NCBI GenBank assembly: GCA_964444485.1
Contig: CAYUHI010000003.1
Span: 1 to 26,714, forward strand
Source of the DNA: an uncultured Gammaproteobacteria bacterium
GTDB lineage: Bacteria; Patescibacteriota; Microgenomatia; UBA1406; GWC2-37-13
Reading direction: 5' to 3'
DNA: 26,714 nucleotides
In this document: positions 2,418 through 15,970 of the stretch, piece by piece
How positions within the stretch are numbered: the stretch's first letter is position 1
Layout: the number at the start of each line of letters is the position of its first letter
The notes under the pieces: generated by a model
Told to the model about the DNA's origin: nothing
What the model saw: only the letters and a program-made list of their open reading frames with translations
The model's database searches: none
Position numbers and translations under genes: made by a program

Positions 2418-2424
2418 TCACTTA

Positions 2425-2559
2425 CAGAAGTTACGCATTTATCCTTCGAGTGGAGCGCCGTAAAGGGCGGAGTCGAGAAGTTTGCCATAACAGTTCTCGA
2501 CTTAGTTTAAAGTGAGCTTGTCGAGCCACTCGAACAATAACTATCTTGCGTAAGATCTG
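2425..2559. mobile_element. MITE-like element E1 (135 bp): 13-bp imperfect TIRs, 7-bp target-site duplication
   Basis: Ends CAGAAGTTACGCA / TGCGTAAGATCTG (11/13 complementary). Flanked by TCACTTA at 2418-2424 and 2560-2566. Internal stems TTCGAGTGG/CCACTCGAA and AGTCGAGAA/TTCTCGACT. Homologous to 14763-14892. Confidence 0.85.
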
Positions 2560-2572
2560 TCACTTATATACA

Positions 2573-5500
2573 TCATCTAAAATTCACCGCCTGACCACCA
2601 TTGTAGTTCAACTTGATTTGTTGCTCAGAAAGTGCGTAGTTGTAGACACGGATATCATCTATCTTGCCATTGAACCATCGGGGGGTTGCGTCATCCATCC
2701 TACCAATATAGAAATTGGTTGCAGGATTTGTCATCACGCCGGTTCTACTTGCTTGCTCTCCAAACTTCCCGTCAACATAAATTTTATAGTTGGTTCCATC
2801 CCATACTGCGGCAAAGTGGTGCCAAGTGCTGTTTGATACCGTGGGATATTTAACATACGCACCATCCCAGCCACCGTCCACGCTTAGTTTGAATCGTAAT
2901 TCACCACTCTCATGCCATACATTAAATACTGATGTGCCATAACCCTGATCTGCATCGTTGAACTTACTCACGATAGATGCGCGTGCTGAAGTATTAGCAC
3001 TATTAAACCAACCTGTTACACTAAAAGAGGTCCAACCAGTAAGATTTGGATACGTAGTCCCAAGGTCAACCTCGTCATCCGTACCGTCAAAATTCAGAGA
3101 TCCGTTGTATTTACCAGTTGCGCCATTGTACCAAGCAGACCCTACCGTTTCACAATCACCTAGACTAGTCTGGTCACCTCCCGAGCCAGACCAACTGCCA
3201 TCTAGTGCACTATCGTATATGTCGTTGGATGAGTGTATCACGGTACCTCCACACTCATCTAGTTTATACCAAGCGATAGGCGCCCCACGGTTATAATCCC
3301 AAGCGACTTGGGCCGGGGTGCGGGCATAGCTGTAGAAACGGACCTCATCAATAGCCCCAGGGAAGTTGTATCCTCCAAGTTCATACTGGCCGATATATAT
3401 CGAGCCCGAATTGTCTAGGGTACAGGTCGTTTCTGTACTGTTTGTTATAACTCCATTACGGTATAGGGTAAGTATTTTAGTGTTATGATTATAGGTAGCT
3501 GCCAAGTGTTGCCATTTGTTTGCCTCAACAGGACCTCCGTTAAAATTGGCAATGCACCAATCAGCTCCGTCTCCTAAGTTGACTCTAAAGTCGCCACCCG
3601 CGAGTTCCAGTCGTATCTGGGGATTCGGTCTAGATAGAATCATATCTTGTGAGCCATCCACTACGCTAGGTTTGATCCATACCATGAATGAGATAGATCC
3701 ACCTGCCTCGTATGGATCTAGTCCCGAGACTTCTACATAGTCATTATCCCCATCGAAGTTAAGGGCTTTCCCGAACTTACCACCTATCCATGAAGGGTCT
3801 GCTGAGTCTACCCCACCTGATGATCCAAGTACTCCAGTGTTAGAATGGCCAGTAGTATCGTTCACCGACTGCCCCGTTCCTTCGTCAAACTTCCATTCTG
3901 CAACTGGTGCAGGATCTTGCCCTGCATCGCAGTTGCCCTCGAGGTTTCCGGGCGGACAGTATGCACGCGCGGCGGAGTTGTCCCCTGTCTTGCCGTCACT
4001 GGCGGTGCTCAGCGATCCCATCACTTGGGATTTGCCCTGATTATATTCAACCTTTACTTGGTTTTCAGAAAGGGCAAAGTCGTAGATCTTGACCTCGTCG
4101 ATGGTGCCATCAAAGACACTAGCCCCATCCCATGCTGCTCCGATATTTAACCCTCCCGCCGACGTGCTCACAGTCCCCGTAGTTGTTGCACTCGCATCTA
4201 ATCTTCCATTTATATATATCTGGGCTTTATGCGTCGTCTCGTTGTATACCGCAACAAGATGATACCAAGTATCGGTAACGATAGAACTAGTCGAGCAACC
4301 TCCTTGCCAACCACCCGCATAGACACCGAACTCGATCTTATTCTGGGCACAATTGGTGCCTTTTCTCAAAAAGGTGGTAACGTTGGTTGTCCTTGCACCA
4401 AGATACCGATCGTTATTTACCGCACGAGTTTTGAACCATAACGACCAAGAAAAGCTTGAAAGGTTGCTGATAGCGGGGACTGAGATATAGTCGTTATCAG
4501 CATCAAAATTTAATGCATTACCAAATTTACCATCTCTTGTCCAGCCACTCGTTGCAGTTGCAGGTACTGCCATACCTGATTGTGCGCCGTCGTATGTGGT
4601 TCTACCACTTCCACTATTACACACATCATTGGTGCCCCCCGAGCAAGTGTTATCGGTGCCCTCATCAAATTTGTAATGTATTACTGCAGAGCCCACAGGA
4701 CTTCCTGGAGCGGGATGTCCAGCGTTCATATCTCGAGTTATCTCAGTCTGAGAACGTGCATAGTTGTAGATCCTAAGGTCATCAAGCGACCCATAAAGCG
4801 AGTTACCCGAGAGAAGTGCAGAAGTATTCGCGATCGTAGTCACCGCAGTGGTCCCCGTTGTCTTTAGCACTCCATCCACGTACAAGCTAAGCGAAGTACC
4901 CGACTTGGTGAATGCGAGATGATGATATGTATCACCTGAGATCGCCGTTGTATCGGTGATACCAGGAGTGAATGTCGCATAGCCTATACGATAATTGCCA
5001 CCTACCCGTATTCCCGAATACCAGATCCTCATCGTCGGTCCATCTTTCAAAAATGTTGGATACACCAAATAACGATCATCCCATGAATTCGCTGATCCAT
5101 AGTCGAGAATACACCCTTCATCGTATGATTCTGAGTATCCGCAGGCGGCTGATGAAGTATTGTCATATTTTGTCCACGTTACCCCATCTGTCGAGGTCGC
5201 ATAACCGAGTCGGTAGTGGTCATCGCCTGTCTTAATACCATTAAAAACCATGTGATAGAGTGCACCATCTTTGATCACCCGGGGTCCGGACACCAAGGTG
5301 GCATACCAGGTGTTGGCACCTCCTAGTCCAACAATGCATCCATCTCCCGAAGTAGAACAGTTATTCCCTGAGTTTCGTGTCCAAGTTATGCCGTCTGAGG
5401 AAGTGGCGTAACCTATCCTGTCTACATTTGATGCATCCCGACCAGAGTACCACATCTTGTAAGTTGAGCCATCTTTAATCACCGAGGGCGCGGTAACGAA

Positions 5501-8500: not shown

Positions 8501-11500
8501 AGTTGAGATGGCAGGAGTGAGACTCAGATTATTAAAAGTAAAAGCCCCGGATGTGAGAGTAACATCTGCATCAGGATTGAAAACTACCGTTGATGAGCCT
8601 GCAGTGAATGCACCTGCAAGTGTGAAGAGTGGTGTAGCTGAGGTACCTGTGAGGGTGATCGTAGATGTCGAGCCCCCTGCATCGAGTGTGCCTGCCGTAC
8701 CTATGTTGATATAGCCTGCTGAAAGGTTGTACGATGACCCACTAGGCATTGTATCTATGGTGGATGTGCCTGACGTCGTGCCCGTGAGACTTATTGTTTT
8801 GCTTGCAGCAATGGTGGTAGTACCACCAAGAGCAGTCGTCAAAGCATATGATGAAGATGCGGTCGGGTTGGACGTAAAATCGCCATTTATGGTGACCGCT
8901 CCATCAAACGCGTAGATGTGATCGCCAGTAAGAATAGGGTTGAAAATCAGATTATTATATGTAGGAGAGCCTGAAATAGTTGTATCATAGTCTGAAAGAT
9001 ACCTCACTGTTGATCCGGTGAGGGTATACGTCTGAAATGTCGGCATGGGTACTGTATTCGCTGAGGTGGCTACTGAGTCGCATGTCGCGGTGGTATTGAT
9101 TGCCCCTCCCCCCAAACACAGAGTGGCACCGGAGCTCACGGTGAGGGTGCCAGACGCACCAGGGCCGGTAATTGCTTCATTTGCGTTGAATACCCCCTGA
9201 GATACGTTCATGTTGCCTGACACAGTGAATGCTGAACTGCCTCCATTGATTACCGTAGCTGCAGAGTTCAGAGTGAGTGTGGAGAAGGTGGTTGAGGTGG
9301 AGCCTCCCAGAAGTGCGGGGGTACCTGATGCAGATGTTACCGTGACTGTGGATGTACCTTGGGTAAAGGTGCCAGAGTTACTAAACAGTGTCCCCGAGGT
9401 GCCGGTGAGGGTGATGGTAGAGGCTCTTGCGGTGTAGGTGCCCCCTGTGCCAATATTTACAAACCCTGCAGATAAATTATGATTTGCTCCATTGACTGCA
9501 TCGAGGTTGGAGAGTGCATTGCTCCCGCTCCTTCTCACGTATACCGTCTTTGTAGCACCAAGGGAAGTTGTACCACCAAGGTTCACGAGCAGTGTGTTGG
9601 CTGTTCCTGAAGGGATGATGTCAAAGTCACCATTGATCGTGACTGCACCTCCAATGGTGTATGTTTTATCGGCAGACAGTATAGGATTGAAGATAAGATT
9701 GTTGTATGTGGGAGTATTGGATACGCTTGTATCTGCATTTGACAGATACCGTATGGTCGACCCGGTGAACGTATACGTTTGGAAGGTAGGTAAAGTGATA
9801 GCACCCGTTGATGTTGCTACGGAGTCACATGTATTTGTCGTATTTGTCGCACCTCCCCCGAGACACAGTGTCGCGCCTGATGACACAGTGAGAGTGCCAG
9901 ATGCACCTGGACCAGTGATCGCTGCATTGGCGTTGAATACTCCTTGAGAGACGTTCATGTTGGTGCCGATCGTGAATGCATTACCGCCATTTATCACCGT
10001 AGCTGCAGAGTTCAAGGTAAGAGTTGAAAATGTAGTAGATGAAGAACCATTGAGAAGCGTTGGGGTGCCAGATGCAGAAGTTGCCGTGACTGTCGATGTC
10101 CCTGCGGTGAAGGAACCAGAATTCGTAAACAGTGTCCCTGATGTGCCTGTGAGGGTGATGGTAGAAGCGCGTGCGGTGTAGGTGCCTCCCGTGCCGATGT
10201 TTACAAATCCAGCGGACAGATTGTGATTTGCGCCATTAACTGCATCGAGGTTGGAGAGTGCATTGCTCCCGCTCCTACGGACATATACGGTCTTTGTGGC
10301 GCCAAGGGTTGTTGTGCCTCCGAGATTGACAAGGAGAGTGTTGGCTGTGCCGGAGGGGATGATATCAAGATCCCCATTTATTGTCATGGCTCCCCCAATG
10401 GTGTATGTCTTATCAGCGGTGAGGACTGGATTGAATATCAGGTTGTTGTATGTAGGAGTATTGGATACCGAAGTAGCTGCATTGGATAGGTATCGTATGG
10501 TTGAACCGGTGAATGTATACGTTTGGAAGGTGGGCATAGTGATGCCACTGCCTGATGTTGCCACAGAATCACATGTATTTGTTGTATTGGTCGCCCCTCC
10601 TCCAAGACAGAGAGTTGCTCCAGAGCTTACGGTGAGAGTACCTGATGCACCTGGTCCGGTGATCTGAGCATTCGCATTGAATACTCCTTGAGAAACATTC
10701 ATATTGGTACCGACAGTGAATGCATTACCACCGTTTATCACCGTAGCTGCAGAGTTCAGAGTGAGCGTGGAGAATGTGGTGGACGATGATCCATTGAGAA
10801 GTGTTGGGGTGCCTGATGCAGATGTCACCGTTACTGTGGAAGTCCCTTGGGTGAAGGCACCAGAGTTGCTAAATAGTGTCCCCGTGATACCGGTGAGGGT
10901 GATGGTTGAGGTAGACGAACCTGCGTCGAGTGTGCCAGATGTTCCAATCGTCAGAAAACCCGTTGATAGGTTATAACTTGTTCCGGGATTAGTGTCTAGA
11001 GTCGAGGTAGCACTGTTTGTGCGGGTAATGGTGGTTGTTTTGGTACTGGCTACGGTAGTCGTACCTCCCATATTGACGGTGAGTGCAGGAGTACCGGCCC
11101 CAGATTCATCTGGGTTTATAGTGAAATTACCATTAATGGTCATAGCTCCACCAAGAGTGTACGTATAAGAAGTCGTGACAAATTTTGGTTTTAACTCCAA
11201 ATTACCATAGGTAGGTGTATTGGAGATCGTAGTGTTGTTGTCGGAAAGATACCGTATCGTTGATCCGGACGAGAATGTATAGGTAGTAAAAGATGGCAAA
11301 GCTTGCGCAGTAGTCTGTGCTGCACCAGACACACAGTCAGCTGTGGTAGACCCCGTTGTGCCGCCGAGACAAAGAATCCCAGGATCGTCGATTTTGAGTG
11401 TTGTGTTTGCACCTGCCGTAATCGTCCGATTTTCCAGATTAAACACTCCATTCGCCACCCAAAACATGTGTGGTGCATTAGCGGCAATGGTGAAATTTGC

Positions 11501-13300
11501 TCCAGCGTTGATGACCGTCGCTGCGGAAGCATCTATTTTAAGTGTATTAAGAGTAATTGTGGAGCCAGACGTCGCAAAGAGAGTAGGTGTCCCAGATGCT
11601 GGGCTTACGATCCATGACGTCAGGCTTTCTGTCGTCATAGTTGCGGTTGAACCTGATTGCCCGAGAGTAAATAATGTGCCCGATGTACCAACTAAGTACA
11701 CAATAGAACTGTTCGCAGTAGTAAAATTGCAATTATCCCCTGAAGTTACACCGTTGACTACTATCCAACCTACAGTCATATGTTGACCGTTGGTGGAAAA
11801 TTGAGTCGTGGCTGCAGCAGAGTCAGCTGTTGTACACCCTGTGCCTGATAGGGTCAATGTCCCACCAACTGTGACACCACCGCTCAGATTTACTACCAGA
11901 TCTCTATTTTGGCTCGACGTCGGACTAGATGTCCAGTTGTTATTCACATGAACTGCTGCTCCCATAGTATATGTCCTCGTTCCTCCTAGGGCTGGGCTGA
12001 GGGTGAGATTGTAAAATGCGTTACTATTCGTCCAGCTACCCGAGAGAATTGTAACCGAGGCATCAGAGGTAATAGTCACGCTGATAAAGGTACTAGGGGT
12101 AAATGTTCCGTTATTTGTAGCAATGGTTCCAGTTGTGTTTGTGAGGGTTAACGTACGCGCATTTCCATCGTTAGTTAGTGTAGCTCCATTATTAATGGTA
12201 AGTGAGAGCACCGTAGGACTTGTATTCAGAGTAACAGTATTATTGTTCGATATTGTCACAGTATCACCCGTTCCTGGTCCCGAGGCACAATTTGTCCAGG
12301 TAATCGTAGTCCAGTTTCCAGTACCATTTGATACGCAGCTAGCATCCGAAGCTATCTGCCATTGGGCCAAGTCCTCATACACACTCCTCCCATTCACATC
12401 TCGGATGCTTGTATGACCAAGCTTGTAAAACTCCGGACTCACCTGGGGTGCCATATACTCGTACGCCAGCCGTTGACTCTCCCCTGCCTTGAGCGACACA
12501 CTCCACGTCACCGTTTTGTGATCTTTCTCCTCCCCAACGACACTTGGCCCCTGCCAAATGAGGGTGAATGACGAGGGTATTTGCTCAACTATGGTACCTG
12601 CGAAATCTTCCTTCGCGGTGACGGTGATCACCATAGGATATCGGTCAGATTTAAATGGATTTATGCGTGTGGCACTCGACCGCTGTATGCTGAAAGCAGG
12701 CTGTTTTGATACATCTTGCACAACGAATGAAGACGCGACCTTTTTGCCCGTGTCAAGATTGGTCAGCTTGACTTTGTATGTGCCCACACTATTCACTACC
12801 ATCCGTGCGATGTAGTCTGGTTCGTTCGTCACGTTGTTATCTCCACACGTCGAACTGGTTATAATCTGGTTATCCTTCGTCGTCAGAATAGTTGGTTGTT
12901 TCGCACCTGGTATGCGAACTTCGAGCCTTAGGTTGCTATGGCAGAGAGTGTCGCCCCGTGCGTCAAGCGAAGCCAGCTGGAAAAGCACAGACTCCCCGGG
13001 GGTATATACTGACTTTTCCATGTTTACGGCAAGCACACCGCGTGTGAAGTCACGATCATCTATCTTTTCCTCTGAGTGAGACATGAGCCAATATACAAGC
13101 GTGACTATCGCCAAGACAACTAGTACCGTAAGAACAAATGGGAGAATTCTCCTTACTGGTATGCGTTTCAATAGCGGGGGGATCTTCGCCATCCATGCAG
13201 TCACCTTTTGCCACATGTTCGGCCCCATGGGGCGACCATCTGTTTCATCCTGTGGTGAAGCTCTCGGCCTGGGTATGAGTCGCGCATATTTTGCATGCAT
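2573..13300 (-). CDS. Giant membrane-anchored surface protein (~3,575 aa): TM anchor, Ig/MG2-like module, Thr/Ser/Gly-rich repeat stalk, six LamG-like domains, five-bladed beta-propeller
   Basis: Uninterrupted 10.7-kb ORF. TM helix ILPFVLTVLVVLAIVTLVYWLM. Six LamG starts (FWKMDEG, YWKMDES, YYKLDEG, HYKFDEG, EWKFDEG, WYKLDEC), each closing with a G.[IML]D[ED].[RK].Y/D-type strand. ATG 13300 preferred; the track uses TTG 13348. Confidence 0.93.
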   Translation of the reverse strand: MHAKYARLIPRPRASPQDETDGRPMGPNMWQKVTAWMAKIPPLLKRIPVRRILPFVLTVLVVLAIVTLVYWLMSHSEEKIDDRDFTRGVLAVNMEKSVYTPGESVLFQLASLDARGDTLCHSNLRLEVRIPGAKQPTILTTKDNQIITSSTCGDNNVTNEPDYIARMVVNSVGTYKVKLTNLDTGKKVASSFVVQDVSKQPAFSIQRSSATRINPFKSDRYPMVITVTAKEDFAGTIVEQIPSSFTLIWQGPSVVGEEKDHKTVTWSVSLKAGESQRLAYEYMAPQVSPEFYKLGHTSIRDVNGRSVYEDLAQWQIASDASCVSNGTGNWTTITWTNCASGPGTGDTVTISNNNTVTLNTSPTVLSLTINNGATLTNDGNARTLTLTNTTGTIATNNGTFTPSTFISVTITSDASVTILSGSWTNSNAFYNLTLSPALGGTRTYTMGAAVHVNNNWTSSPTSSQNRDLVVNLSGGVTVGGTLTLSGTGCTTADSAAATTQFSTNGQHMTVGWIVVNGVTSGDNCNFTTANSSIVYLVGTSGTLFTLGQSGSTATMTTESLTSWIVSPASGTPTLFATSGSTITLNTLKIDASAATVINAGANFTIAANAPHMFWVANGVFNLENRTITAGANTTLKIDDPGILCLGGTTGSTTADCVSGAAQTTAQALPSFTTYTFSSGSTIRYLSDNNTTISNTPTYGNLELKPKFVTTSYTYTLGGAMTINGNFTINPDESGAGTPALTVNMGGTTTVASTKTTTITRTNSATSTLDTNPGTSYNLSTGFLTIGTSGTLDAGSSTSTITLTGITGTLFSNSGAFTQGTSTVTVTSASGTPTLLNGSSSTTFSTLTLNSAATVINGGNAFTVGTNMNVSQGVFNANAQITGPGASGTLTVSSGATLCLGGGATNTTNTCDSVATSGSGITMPTFQTYTFTGSTIRYLSNAATSVSNTPTYNNLIFNPVLTADKTYTIGGAMTINGDLDIIPSGTANTLLVNLGGTTTLGATKTVYVRRSGSNALSNLDAVNGANHNLSAGFVNIGTGGTYTARASTITLTGTSGTLFTNSGSFTAGTSTVTATSASGTPTLLNGSSSTTFSTLTLNSAATVINGGNAFTIGTNMNVSQGVFNANAAITGPGASGTLTVSSGATLCLGGGATNTTNTCDSVATSTGAITLPTFQTYTFTGSTIRYLSNADTSVSNTPTYNNLIFNPILSADKTYTIGGAVTINGDFDIIPSGTANTLLVNLGGTTSLGATKTVYVRRSGSNALSNLDAVNGANHNLSAGFVNIGTGGTYTARASTITLTGTSGTLFSNSGTFTQGTSTVTVTSASGTPALLGGSTSTTFSTLTLNSAATVINGGSSAFTVSGNMNVSQGVFNANEAITGPGASGTLTVSSGATLCLGGGAINTTATCDSVATSANTVPMPTFQTYTLTGSTVRYLSDYDTTISGSPTYNNLIFNPILTGDHIYAFDGAVTINGDFTSNPTASSSYALTTALGGTTTIAASKTISLTGTTSGTSTIDTMPSGSSYNLSAGYINIGTAGTLDAGGSTSTITLTGTSATPLFTLAGAFTAGSSTVVFNPDADVTLTSGAFTFNNLSLTPAISTAGRAYTFGSGTQTVNGDFLIQPSGTQLLTVNMAGSITVSNTKTTTITRSSTATSKLVPGASSPALSSGNIAIASGGALDGTSSSSVVTLTANGTPLSVAGTYTPGSTTISYIPASTSGVNVASTTYYNVIFNKASNTFSLATSGITVTNDLTITAGVLDAVNGSNFPITVGRNWTNTPGTSGFEARQGTVTFNTATTGTISGATTFYNFTSTAAGKTIKFNDSTTYRINGLLTLTGSAGPTYVTLDSVSGNPSWTINHQGTESVSYTSVKNSACDGTSQEINAFGANNYDAGGNGTCWLFTEPLASVNYSFWKMDEGYSTTAHDSTDAVNTGTLAGTTKPTWQNEEYCVSGKCLYFEGTTAKVTTSEEVNVRTVSFWVRPVSTTTTFLQLNNSDYISASSGTLSATGFTATFYVDGVAKSTIEAGKWQHIVATTGTTVSGSAIILGNNSTNYYQGLMDEVRLDSTEYTAGQVKGDYIRRGAPDPVSAQFSDQDYQRLYDGLVGYWKMDESSGNATDSSGNATTLTNSASTPYVTAKFGNGADLESGSNQYFSVADNTVLSITGSLTLAAWIKPESVSAGTYNIISKWDGANVSYRLMQNADEIRLELNDTNNYIETSASNLVQDTWYQVVGVYDSAAATARIYINGIQATVATTGTIPSAIGDDGGKFHIGAQDSTGGASNYYDGIIDEARVYKRALSEYEIRSLYTLSPSPIAYYKLDEGSGTTANDSSGNSYTGTLTNSPVWGTGKYGSGVAMNGSQQYISVSDNANLRLSGDFTLSGWVRPQSASKDYLLLNNNAPLMQKIDGTDGYELGITQDGIPYGMLTNVSKTWTRYDNGSSADCSFGESYDDGCVISISATNNWDDAQVYTPFVFKEGSTYKMYYGGNDGSKVSVGLATSTNGYSWTRNSGNNCSSTGDGCVLPYGGASSWNINASYFPSVIKDGGTYKMWFGGSDGTNVRIGYATSTDGANWTLYNGNNCSGTSGNGCIFNIGTSGNWDAKFVTAPSVIKDGSTYKMWYSGRDASNVDRIGYATSSDGITWTRNSGNNCSTSGDGCIVGLGGANTWYATLVSGPRVIKDGALYHMVFNGIKTGDDHYRLGYATSTDGVTWTKYDNTSSAACGYSESYDEGCILDYGSANSWDDRYLVYPTFLKDGPTMRIWYSGIRVGGNYRIGYATFTPGITDTTAISGDTYHHLAFTKSGTSLSLYVDGVLKTTGTTAVTTIANTSALLSGNSLYGSLDDLRIYNYARSQTEITRDMNAGHPAPGSPVGSAVIHYKFDEGTDNTCSGGTNDVCNSGSGRTTYDGAQSGMAVPATATSGWTRDGKFGNALNFDADNDYISVPAISNLSSFSWSLWFKTRAVNNDRYLGARTTNVTTFLRKGTNCAQNKIEFGVYAGGWQGGCSTSSIVTDTWYHLVAVYNETTHKAQIYINGRLDASATTTGTVSTSAGGLNIGAAWDGASVFDGTIDEVKIYDFALSENQVKVEYNQGKSQVMGSLSTASDGKTGDNSAARAYCPPGNLEGNCDAGQDPAPVAEWKFDEGTGQSVNDTTGHSNTGVLGSSGGVDSADPSWIGGKFGKALNFDGDNDYVEVSGLDPYEAGGSISFMVWIKPSVVDGSQDMILSRPNPQIRLELAGGDFRVNLGDGADWCIANFNGGPVEANKWQHLAATYNHNTKILTLYRNGVITNSTETTCTLDNSGSIYIGQYELGGYNFPGAIDEVRFYSYARTPAQVAWDYNRGAPIAWYKLDECGGTVIHSSNDIYDSALDGSWSGSGGDQTSLGDCETVGSAWYNGATGKYNGSLNFDGTDDEVDLGTTYPNLTGWTSFSVTGWFNSANTSARASIVSKFNDADQGYGTSVFNVWHESGELRFKLSVDGGWDGAYVKYPTVSNSTWHHFAAVWDGTNYKIYVDGKFGEQASRTGVMTNPATNFYIGRMDDATPRWFNGKIDDIRVYNYALSEQQIKLNYNGGQAVNFR
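4970..6016 (-). other. Five-bladed beta-propeller domain (arabinanase/levansucrase/invertase-like fold) within the giant protein
   Basis: Five repeats of W(D/N/Y)...P.(V/F)(I/F/L)K(D/E)G..(Y/M).(M/I).(Y/F).G...(I/L/V)G(Y/L)AT(S..G..WT), each with a Cys pair. Confidence 0.8.
8663..10906 (-). repeat. Intragenic tandem repeats, 744-nt (248-aa) period, three copies plus degenerate flanking units
   Basis: The TITLTG-coding anchor gtgagggtgat starts at 10893, 10149, 9405 and 8649 (spacings 744, 744, 756). Each unit carries LCLGGGA.NTT.TCDS. Confidence 0.93.
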
Positions 13301-14169: not shown

Positions 14170-14736
14170 CTATTCCTTCATCATAGCTCCATCTGATGCA
14201 GCTTCAGGCGACGGTGACGGTATTGGAATCTCTGTGGGAACTTGTGTCCGCGTCTGGGGCTGTGGGGGTGGGGGTGCTTGCTGAGACTGCGCCTCAGGTG
14301 AAGGTAGTGCAAACGGTCCTTGTGAAACTACTTTATTGATGCTGGGTCGATAAATATAGACCCATTGAGATTTCTGGTAGAGCAATATGAGATCTCCATT
14401 GATTGCATCTTTGAATGCTGGTTGGCTTTTGAGCTTGCTAATGTCACCGATTGTTGCAAACACAGGAGTTTCGTCGTCGGGAAGTTTTGTTAGTTTATTC
14501 ACTTTCTGAATGGTGTCAAATAGTTGCCGTGCAACAGTAATATCTCCTCCTTGTGCTTCTGCTAGACCGATGAGTTTAGACATTTCTGCCTGTCGTTGGA
14601 GATTTCTGCTTGTCGCGATAGTAAGAAGAACCATAGCAGATAGAAATATCACGATCGAAACGATAACCAACATCCGTGATATTTTTGTTTGCTTGTCCCG
14701 AAAAGTGAGTTTTTTGTGATTTTCGACTTGTATCAT
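14170..14736 (-). CDS. Single-TM protein with the 'YRPS' domain and a Pro/Gln-rich tail, no LytR_C (188 aa)
   Basis: TM MLVIVSIVIFLSAMVLLTIA. Domain KLPDDETPVFATIGDISKLKSQPAFKDAINGD...IYRPSINKVV aligns with both neighbours. Confidence 0.85.
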   Translation of the reverse strand: MIQVENHKKLTFRDKQTKISRMLVIVSIVIFLSAMVLLTIATSRNLQRQAEMSKLIGLAEAQGGDITVARQLFDTIQKVNKLTKLPDDETPVFATIGDISKLKSQPAFKDAINGDLILLYQKSQWVYIYRPSINKVVSQGPFALPSPEAQSQQAPPPPQPQTRTQVPTEIPIPSPSPEAASDGAMMKE

Positions 14737-14762
14737 ACCGAATCAATAAACTTTATAAATAA

Positions 14763-14892
14763 CAGAAGTTACGCATTTATTCTTCGAGTGGAGCGCTGTA
14801 AAGCGCGAAATCGAGAAGCTTACCTGAAAGTTCTCGACTCGTGACGCAGAGCGTCACACCGCTCGAACAGTAACTATTTTGCGTAAGTACTG
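14763..14892. mobile_element. MITE-like element E2 (130 bp), same family as E1
   Basis: Ends CAGAAGTTACGCA / TGCGTAAGTACTG. TAAATAA duplicated at 14756-14762 and 14893-14899. 50/55 nt identical to E1 at the left end and 29/34 at the right end. Confidence 0.85.
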
Positions 14893-14899
14893 TAAATAA

Positions 14900-15033
14900 T
14901 AGATCTTAACGCCTAAAATAGGGTCTTATATTGTCATTGCAATCCTGCGCTAGCCGAAGGAGAAGCAATCTCATAAAAATCATGAATTAGATTGCCGCGT
15001 CGCTCCGCTCCTCGCAATGACGCATAAGTACTG
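14900..15033. mobile_element. MITE-like element E3 (134 bp): degenerate E1/E2-type ends around a different REP-like palindrome
   Basis: Left end TAGATCTTAACGC, right end GCATAAGTACTG. TAAATAA on both sides (14893-14899, 15034-15040). Internal GTCATTGC (14933-14940)/GCAATGAC (15014-15021) and GCAATCT (14965-14971)/AGATTGC (14989-14995). Confidence 0.7.
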
Positions 15034-15073
15034 TAAATAACTTATCTTCTGGCGAAATGGTATCCCTTTGATT

Positions 15074-15133
15074 TCCTGCTTGTCCCGATTGTCTCGGGGA
15101 ACTTGCTGTGCCCGCCTTCGGAGGGGTTCAGGA
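15074..15133. repeat. Small branched palindrome directly after the 15143 stop codon; possible terminator or REP-like remnant
   Basis: TCCTG/CAGGA outer stem enclosing the CCCGA/TCGGG and CCT-TCGG-AGG hairpins. No clear U-tract. Confidence 0.35.
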
Positions 15134-15142
15134 TCCATCAGG

Positions 15143-15970
15143 TTACTCCCCTACGATCGCTAAGATATCTGCATCTGGCCTATCCTCTTCCTCAGGTAGT
15201 GTGCCTTTCTTGCCCTGGAAACTCCGAATGAGCGCCGAGACCACTGCGTCATGTCCACCCTTGAGGTCAATGATCGTTGTCCCCTTGTACTCTGTACCTC
15301 GCGTTAATGCCTCGAAACTCACTTCTATGTTGGGCATATTACTCAATACCTTTCCCACTTTTGCTCGAAGCTGTGAGCTATCAGTTGCATAATATACTGC
15401 TAGTTTAGCCTGTAACTGAGCCCCAGAAGTCGCTTGCTTTGTAACACCTTTCACCTGAGGTTTACTAGTTGATGGAGTCTCACCACCTGACTGATCGAGT
15501 ATTTGGGCCATATTCACAATCTTGCCTATTGATGGTCGGTACAGTACCGCGAGACGGGCACTGTTGTACACAAACAACTTGTCATCGAGCTCCGCATTCC
15601 TAAAAAATGTTTCCTCGTTGAGCTTACTGATATCTATGACGCTCGCGAGGTTTGGGGCTTCATCGGAAGGTACAAGGGCGATCGATTGCAACTTCTCAAG
15701 AAGCGCCGCCACTTCCGCCTGGTCTACCGGTTGAAGTGACTGTTGTATAACACTGGCTTTCGCTGGATCTGATATGGCAGACACTGGTCTGGTAGATGAC
15801 ATCTTGCTTATCTGCTGGGCAAGTTTGATATTTTCTTTGTCTATCTTCAGATAATTCATGGCTAACACGAGGAAAAGCGAGATGGAAATCATGATGAAAA
15901 AAGAATACGCGATAGTCTTGTGGCTGAATGTTGCTTTCTTACGAGGAAGACTAAGACTGGTATATGTCAT
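15143..15970 (-). CDS. Single-TM protein with the 'YRPS' domain and a divergent LytR_C-like domain (275 aa)
   Basis: TM IAYSFFIMISISLFLVLAM. Domain VPSDEAPNLASVIDISKL...FFRNAELDDKL...AVLYRPSIGKIV. C-terminus KLAVYY...EYKGTTIIDL...DADILAIVGE. Confidence 0.85.
   Translation of the reverse strand: MTYTSLSLPRKKATFSHKTIAYSFFIMISISLFLVLAMNYLKIDKENIKLAQQISKMSSTRPVSAISDPAKASVIQQSLQPVDQAEVAALLEKLQSIALVPSDEAPNLASVIDISKLNEETFFRNAELDDKLFVYNSARLAVLYRPSIGKIVNMAQILDQSGGETPSTSKPQVKGVTKQATSGAQLQAKLAVYYATDSSQLRAKVGKVLSNMPNIEVSFEALTRGTEYKGTTIIDLKGGHDAVVSALIRSFQGKKGTLPEEEDRPDADILAIVGE

Follow-up and report, generated by a model that had tools for sequence, protein, structure and literature searches.

Two MITE families with one kind of end, probably stacked by re-use of a preferred heptamer target in a genome of about 1 Mb

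Two short non-coding elements, E2 and E3, stand side by side in an intergenic spacer of a bacterial genome from a wastewater or activated sludge sample, delimited by three copies of the heptamer TAAATAA. The feature is largely explained: it is a stack of MITEs of sister families that re-use a preferred target. E3 is old and E2 is recent. Our overall reading, which we hold to be probable, is that the two MITE families have the same TIRs, that E3 was inserted first, and that E2 was inserted later into its left duplication copy.

Results

The stack and its genomic setting

The window, that is, the whole stretch of 26.7 kb (26,714 nucleotides) that was analysed, is contig C3 of a 0.97-Mb assembly in 114 contigs that is 83% complete. 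Genome sizes are 0.5-1.8 Mb in all relatives sampled, up to order level, and the coding density here is about 90%, taken as the share of sequence inside stop-to-stop frames of at least 120 codons. The stack lies in the spacer between two co-directional minus-strand genes that are paralogues of each other (Table 1); the neighbouring genes encode membrane and LytR_C proteins. About 355 bp of this 406-bp spacer consists of E2, E3, their extra duplication copies and a further repeated hairpin element, R4. Scanning the spacer for promoters and terminators gave no signal exceeding that of shuffles.

TAAATAA occurs five times in the window, and three of these copies bracket E2 and E3 exactly, in the order TSD-E2-TSD-E3-TSD; positions and counts are as the first-pass annotation had claimed. 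The DNA fold of E2 has an energy of -30.1 kcal/mol (z -4.7), the fold of E3 is weak (z -2.1), and both elements are non-coding, without any ORF of at least 60 aa inside. E3 was said to keep family-type ends, and indeed it does, in the form of degenerate copies of the family TIR: the terminal base is changed and one extra base is present at the left end, one mismatch is found at the right end, and a core arm carries one substitution. Its interior is a different palindrome, GTCATTGC..GCAATC, a loop, and GATTGC..GCAATGAC, which was rightly placed in a widespread hairpin-repeat class, with matches across many phyla. No Rfam family matches E2, E3 or the canonical core copies; literature searches by sequence or peptide strings returned primer coincidences only, or nothing, and the viral contigs searched gave one chance match, inside a coding region.

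Table 1. Coordinates of the stack, its neighbours and related features (positions without a contig or locus name are those of the window)
Feature	Position	Strand	Remarks
Downstream flanking gene	14170..14736	-	188 aa; start codon 26 nt from E2
TAAATAA copy 1	14756..14762		left of E2
E2, E2-type MITE	14763..14892	+	130 bp; TIRs 14763-14775 and 14880-14892; core is an outer stem around three hairpins
TAAATAA copy 2	14893..14899		common to E2 (right) and E3 (left)
E3, decayed E3-type MITE	14900..15033	+	134 bp
E3 left TIR	14900-14912
E3 spacer	14913-14932
E3 left hairpin	14933-14970
E3 loop	14971-14989
E3 right hairpin	14990-15021
E3 right TIR	15022-15033
TAAATAA copy 3	15034..15040		right of E3
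R4, repeated hairpin element	15068..15137	+	~70 bp; same spacer; ends 5 nt past the stop codon of the upstream gene
Upstream flanking gene	15143..15970	-	275 aa
E1, second E2-type MITE in the window	2425-2559	+	135 bp; 2418..2566 with its own duplication, TCACTTA
ISNCY/IS1202-like gene	C10 20055-21341 (L033 904-2193)	-	TGTTA..AAATAAAACCGGA inverted ends
Heptamer-like tandem runs	C17 ~11870-12030; C13 ~10880-10920; C16 ~9510-9560; C47 ~4350-4400; L053 38-95

Two families with the same TIRs

Both families carry the 12-nt TIR CAGWWSTTACGC (12-13 nt) at both ends, together with 7-bp TSDs, around two unrelated cores, which bears out the earlier proposal that the same ends hold different cargos. The terminal 12 nt, left and right, fit CAG-(AAG/ATC/TAC)-TTACGC in both families; E2 has the AAG variant, and the left end of E3 has ATC. 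This CAG-type pattern gives 18 matches in this genome against one for the reversed control, and in 120 other genomes of the family it stays mostly near the level of the reversed-pattern control, which points to a lineage-specific burst.

The E2-type family has about 13 copies in the 0.97-Mb genome (BLAST against the whole genome), and E1 is the second one in the window. One copy, which lies at C21 16646-16775 and runs on into the end of C4, is 100% identical to E2, and another, at C27 588-717, is 99% identical; near-identity at these two other loci means that the E2-type family moved recently. E3 as a whole is single-copy here and has no close copy in the genome. E3-type sequences amount to at least six copies or fragments, lying besides E3 itself at C47 1281-1444 and on C22, C16, C108 and C8, and the sister species G009 has 11 matches. 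Two full 131-bp E3-type copies in G009 have duplications of their own (TAATTGA and TAACTTA), and longer copies there measure 242 bp with TCATTAA and 210 bp with roughly TACTGTA. G007 also has E3-type copies, and so do genomes of other genera, namely G021 and G015, the latter with two copies separated by 560 bp.

Most intact E2-type copies are flanked by exact 7-bp duplications. Direct repeats of 7 bp stand at 10 loci at least and differ between copies (TCACTTA, TAAATAA at two loci, TAAACTA, GTGTTTA, TAATTGA, TAACTTA, TCATTAA and others); two copies, at C27 5747 (E2-type) and C47 1281, are without matching duplications. Short, non-coding, bounded by TIRs and copy-specific TSDs, and dispersed in near-identical copies, the two families are MITEs.

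The first-pass annotation had also supposed that the mobile unit is constrained to about 130-135 bp and packages interchangeable hairpin cassettes. The length constraint fails: E2-type elements are 130-135 bp long with one copy of 169 bp, and E3-type elements measure 129, 130, 131, 134, 164, 174, 210 and 242 bp. The modal length is near 130 bp in both families; the long E3-type subfamily is multi-copy, its long insert recurring in several G009 copies. Nor did packaging find support, as only two core types were seen, each a stable family. Two structural details may be recorded here. Elements L047, L052, L030 and L054 of G009 carry a nested hairpin insert of about 70 nt, GTCCCGATACTGTTTCCGAC.., in one core arm, and a small side hairpin, TCCGCCnnnGGCGGA, is common to E2-type (L019, L022) and E3-type (L016) elements.

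Orthologous sites and independent assemblies

The orthologous genes in G009 (64% and 55% protein identity) are 11 bp apart versus 406 bp here, and those in G006 (50% and 43% identity; full-length 269-aa form) are 17 bp apart, these 'empty' sites coming from distant species at 43-64% protein identity. The G006 spacer resembles the left flank of the stack. A spacer of 11-17 bp in relatives has probably reached 406 bp here via three small insertions, and this may uncouple genes that were formerly tightly linked.

Two independent studies of wastewater or sludge supply contigs that span the stack, from the end of E2 through TAAATAA, E3 and TAAATAA into the right flank (run X3, 14867-15134; run X6, 14345-14889 and 14860-15019); the arrangement is therefore not an assembly artefact. 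Metagenome contigs break at 14989/15021, where the depth is very high, which shows that the right hairpin recurs as a unit of its own in numerous organisms. It had been suggested to look for strains with 0, 1 or 2 units at this site. The two-unit stack was indeed recovered in independent runs, but at contig level neither a 0-unit nor a 1-unit allele was seen in the metagenomes, a weak negative since such repeats interrupt the assemblies. Scanning metagenomes for the right junction gave no match, and an exact-protein look-up returned the source samples only, with contigs breaking at the MITE.

One contig of run X5 joins the paralogous flanking genes from 14475 to 15144 and skips 668 bp, including the whole spacer. 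This skip may be a deletion allele, the paralogue of another organism or an assembly chimera; as an alternative allele we set it aside, judging it an effect of paralogy or chimerism.

Order of insertion

E3 looks old, given its mutated terminal base, extra TIR base, arm substitution and lack of any close copy, and E2 is matched by identical copies at other loci. E3 first and then E2 is therefore the likeliest order, which we infer solely from divergence. We propose the following course. E3 would have inserted at TAAATAA in an originally very short spacer between the co-directional genes and then decayed. Later, a currently active E2 copy would have entered E3's left TAAATAA, duplicating the heptamer again and giving TSD-E2-TSD-E3-TSD.

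It is also conceivable that E2-TAAATAA-E3 moved or arose as one unit, either as a composite mobilised through its outermost TIRs or by recombination between elements at two TAAATAA sites. The outer ends of the stack, E2 left and E3 right, lie 271 bp apart, make a valid TIR pair and have identical heptamers outside. However, the genome has neither a second E3 nor a second E2-E3 junction, the inner heptamer would have to equal the new target by chance, and E2 has identical solo copies elsewhere, whereas E3 is old; we find the one-unit origin quite improbable.

A second possibility is that E3 arose as a tandem duplicate of E2 plus its TSD and that a REP-like palindrome later took the place of its interior; the two elements are alike in length (130 vs 134 bp) and in their ends. 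Against this, E3 aligns end to end with elements of G009, G007 and G015 that have their own 7-bp duplications; the match to the G009 elements is 80% identity over the full length (E 2e-28) and includes the 20-nt spacer from left TIR to core. Moreover, the left TIR of E3 is the ATC variant, not E2's AAG. Full-length homology to independent elements excludes a duplicated E2 invaded by a REP, and we give this origin practically no credence.

Re-use of TAAATAA and target preference

Successive insertion, E3 and then E2, uses one heptamer twice, and the other insertions show what kind of target is taken. The form T.....A is seen in 12 of the 14 duplications pooled from both families; 11 have A at position 3 and nine have T at position 5. 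The target consensus is about TAANTWA, a near-palindrome. TAAATAA was chosen by three of the seven scorable insertions in this genome and was used at a second locus, by an E2-type copy at C13 7462-7592. The genome has 138 TAAATAA/TTATTTA heptamers, about 24 of which are outside stop-to-stop frames of at least 120 codons, and five of those 24 are the duplication copies themselves, three in the stack and two at C13. With the TAANTWA preference, and with two duplication copies among about 20 good targets, a double insertion is unsurprising. Re-use of the heptamer is accounted for by target preference, and no new mechanism is needed. The claim that the mobile unit re-targets its own previous insertion site is therefore right in that TAAATAA was used twice and goes too far in the special mechanism it implies. 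What the shared 7-mer does show is a real sequence preference of the putative transposase and the scarcity of neutral landing sites at about 1 Mb and about 90% coding density.

In its strongest form the claim was that of a dedicated array-building system, which re-targets its own insertion site and packages length-limited hairpin cassettes, and the double use of one site and the modal length near 130 bp would agree with it. Yet the assembly holds a single stack among about 20 elements, and a search for a right end followed by a left end within 15 nt found no junction besides that of E2 and E3. The lengths run up to 242 bp in a multi-copy subfamily, no associated gene lies nearby, and target preference already accounts for the re-use. 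We consider such a system very unlikely; the likeness to spacer acquisition dissolves into one stack of two units without an adjacent dedicated enzyme.

The E3 core and small GIY-YIG genes

The E3 core is made of two inverted hairpins, GTCATTGCGAG..GAAGCAATC, a loop and then the complement. A scan for the core pattern, with one genome per species, gave at least 120 matches. The matches listed include Alpha-, Delta- and Gammaproteobacteria, Chloroflexi, Planctomycetota, Nitrospirota, Patescibacteria, Nostoc, Bacteroidales and others, and among them the core is usually a naked palindrome of about 75-90 bp without CAG-type TIRs.

The same arms also flank genes. In G021 (L204 1406-1784, on G021:C2), arms identical in type to those of the E3 core enclose a 97-aa single-domain GIY-YIG ORF (L204 1441-1734), and in G015 (L197 1407-1790, on G015:C1) a 95-aa homologue lies between arms of a covarying variant, GTCATTCCGAG..GGAATC. 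The arm changes in G015 are compensatory on both sides (GCGAG/CTCGC to CCGAG/TCGG; GCAATC/GATTGC to GGAATC/GATTCC). The present genome has two hairpin-gene-hairpin units of about 363 bp with variant arms, C47 3963-4325 and C8 13394-13757, which hold a GIY-YIG ORF of about 90 aa between the hairpins and nothing more, encoded at C47 4005-4280 and C8 13448-13714; the C8 copy has an in-frame TAA, and the proteins of the two units are 42-53% identical to the GIY-YIG proteins of G021 and G015. The GIY-YIG protein has a weak match to PDB 1zg2. By Pfam GIY-YIG, small GIY-YIG ORFs number nine in this 0.97-Mb genome and 7-12 in its relatives. No CAG TIRs were found around the GIY-YIG genes, in all nine here and in 20 loci fetched from relatives.

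R4 has at least six other copies, at C17 11914-11983, C13 10922-10971 and C16 9471-9508 and on C68, C44 and C50. It matches the right arm of the C47 3963-4325 unit at 22 of 25 bases and is probably a solo hairpin of the same system as that hairpin-GIY-YIG-hairpin unit. The first 20 or so nucleotides of R4 resemble the TIR of two DDE_Tnp_1 insertion sequences of G009 (L031, L032). Heptamer-like tandem runs (GTAAACA / GTAACAG and their complements; Table 1) directly adjoin copies of R4, units with a GIY-YIG gene and one E3-type end.

Search for the mobilising enzyme

Staggered-cut transposition classically leaves TIRs combined with a duplication of fixed length, which is 7 bp here. We propose that one transposase would mobilise E2-type and E3-type MITEs in trans, most likely one of the DDE type that makes 7-bp staggered cuts and prefers AT-rich TAANTWA heptamers; it is this signature of TIRs and a fixed duplication, and nothing else, that suggests the DDE type.

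Profile searches covered seven Pfam families (five transposase, one integrase and one GIY-YIG). No gene-bearing element between CAG-type TIRs was found in this 83% complete assembly, and no transposase-bearing one in the close relatives searched or among the TIR matches of the 120 family genomes; inspecting TIR matches that are not part of a MITE yielded none either. The only transposase in the assembly is ISNCY/IS1202-like, with 429 aa (rve; NF033594, E 1.6e-50); its element is flanked by a direct repeat of about 17 bp, AGCCCGCTCATCCCCAT, and a search of ten further genomes of the genus did not find it. We rejected it as the mobiliser on account of its TGTTA ends and ~17-bp repeats, which are not CAG-type TIRs. 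Other candidates were discarded for their ends as well: the two DDE_Tnp_1 insertion sequences of G009, which end in CCTGACTTGTCCCGC-like TIRs, an IS1595-like one seen only in G006 and an IS256-like one in G015, the last two without matching TIRs. No DDE_3 was found, and no Y1 (PF01797) in this genome or G009; in G015 and G007, where Y1 did match, the ~1.5 kb fetched to the left and right of the matches holds no core arms. A co-occurring DDE, HUH/RAYT or GIY-YIG enzyme, which the first-pass annotation had proposed to look for, was thus not found with matching CAG-type TIRs. Active MITE families are documented in a genome of about 1 Mb whose assembly yielded no mobilising enzyme.

A small GIY-YIG nuclease, of which these genomes encode many, might instead be the mobiliser. 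Such ORFs are numerous here and in relatives, the E3 core belongs to the type of hairpin pair found around them, and a transposase with matching ends was not found. On the other hand, CAG-type TIRs flank none of the GIY-YIG genes examined and E2-type elements are without such a hairpin. Gene counts do not follow the MITE burst, G021 and G015 having 7-9 genes and few TIR matches, and TIRs with a fixed 7-bp duplication are what staggered-cut transposition leaves. We regard a GIY-YIG mobiliser as unlikely and retain a DDE transposase acting in trans as the putative enzyme.

Discussion

Ends and cores in these elements can be compared in both directions. G021 has a MITE family of about 168 bp (L024, L025, L026) with CTGACCCAC(C/G)TGCA ends, E3's hairpin-pair core inside and exact 9-bp duplications (GTGATTATG, GGAAAATAA and ATACTATTG); an 11-nt spacer motif is also common to this family and an E3-type copy of G007. 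Both combinations thus occur: one set of ends can enclose different cores, and one core can stand between different ends. The second case is cleanly exemplified by the E3 core, which two transposon end-sets carry. We take this mixing as evolutionary capture or invasion; no evidence for a cassette-packaging mechanism was seen. For the CAG-type family, the hairpin-pair core would have been acquired once by a TIR-bounded MITE, and the composite would then have spread as a family. It is possible, and we put this forward only tentatively, that MITE ends and cores assort independently and that the hairpin pair was captured at least twice, once by CAG-type elements with 7-bp duplications and once by CTGACCCAC-type elements with 9-bp duplications in G021. 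If this is true, Ssn-type hairpins would have another way to spread, either carried along passively by MITEs that a transposase moves or by actively invading such MITEs, and nuclease recognition sites could be sown across a genome without the nuclease gene having to move with them. The interest that is left lies in the mobiliser, in MITE activity at about 1 Mb, and in the link between the hairpins and Ssn-like nucleases, with capture by two end-sets.

Ssn proteins are site-specific single-stranded DNA GIY-YIG nucleases, which occur in SRM-ssnA-SRM units with Ssn-related motifs (SRM/NTS; Chenal et al. 2025, PMC11893778); the Neisseria NTS begins with GTCATT and ends with AATC (PMC11893778). Each half of the E3 core is likewise a hairpin that starts with GTCATT and finishes with AATC (14933-14970; reverse complement 14990-15021), the same arms in relatives stand on both sides of a single-domain GIY-YIG gene of about 97 aa, and E3-core repeats, like SRMs, are spread across many phyla. 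The E3-core hairpins differ in being longer and branched, and in E3 the pair encloses no gene and is itself enclosed in a TIR-bounded MITE. Neither E3 nor the canonical copies nor the gene-flanking arms match the published degenerate search sequence for SRMs, and its three matches in the genome equal those of shuffles. We therefore class the E3-core hairpins as relatives of SRMs that probably work alike, and not as strict members. A palindrome found across bacteria is now linked to the Ssn/SRM system (PMC11893778), and this is testable with purified nucleases.

The E3 core also recalls REP sequences and REPINs with their RAYT enzymes (PMC3116915; PMC3733652), being extragenic, palindromic, often in inverted pairs, dispersed and abundant. 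However, no Y1 transposase is present in this genome or G009, no GTAG or CGTC tag is found, and E2 and E3 have TIRs and duplications, which REPINs do not.

Type II MITEs resemble an insertion sequence in the TIRs only, as do Nezha in Anabaena/Nostoc and Correia in Neisseria (PMC10969869, PMC3184786). E2 and E3 agree with prokaryotic MITEs in several respects: they are short and non-coding (130-135 bp), with TIRs and flanking direct repeats, have AT-rich intergenic targets, stable folds and many dispersed copies, and may show empty versus filled orthologous sites. They depart from them in that no partner insertion sequence was found, in the 7-bp TAANTWA duplication, in two unrelated cores under one TIR, and in host genomes of about 1 Mb, which judging by their size are probably those of Patescibacteria; our literature search found no paper on MITEs in Patescibacteria.

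A CRISPR-like or integron-like acquisition array is a poor parallel, as there is one stack of two units and no adjacent dedicated enzymes. A closer one comes from plants, where nested or adjacent MITEs reportedly reflect target preference, a conclusion ascribed to Jiang and Wessler (2001, Plant Cell). As in plants, MITEs here land in or beside earlier MITEs through the same preferred short target. The plant targets are 2-3 bp (TA, TAA), whereas here a full 7-bp duplication is re-used, hence the conspicuous repeat.
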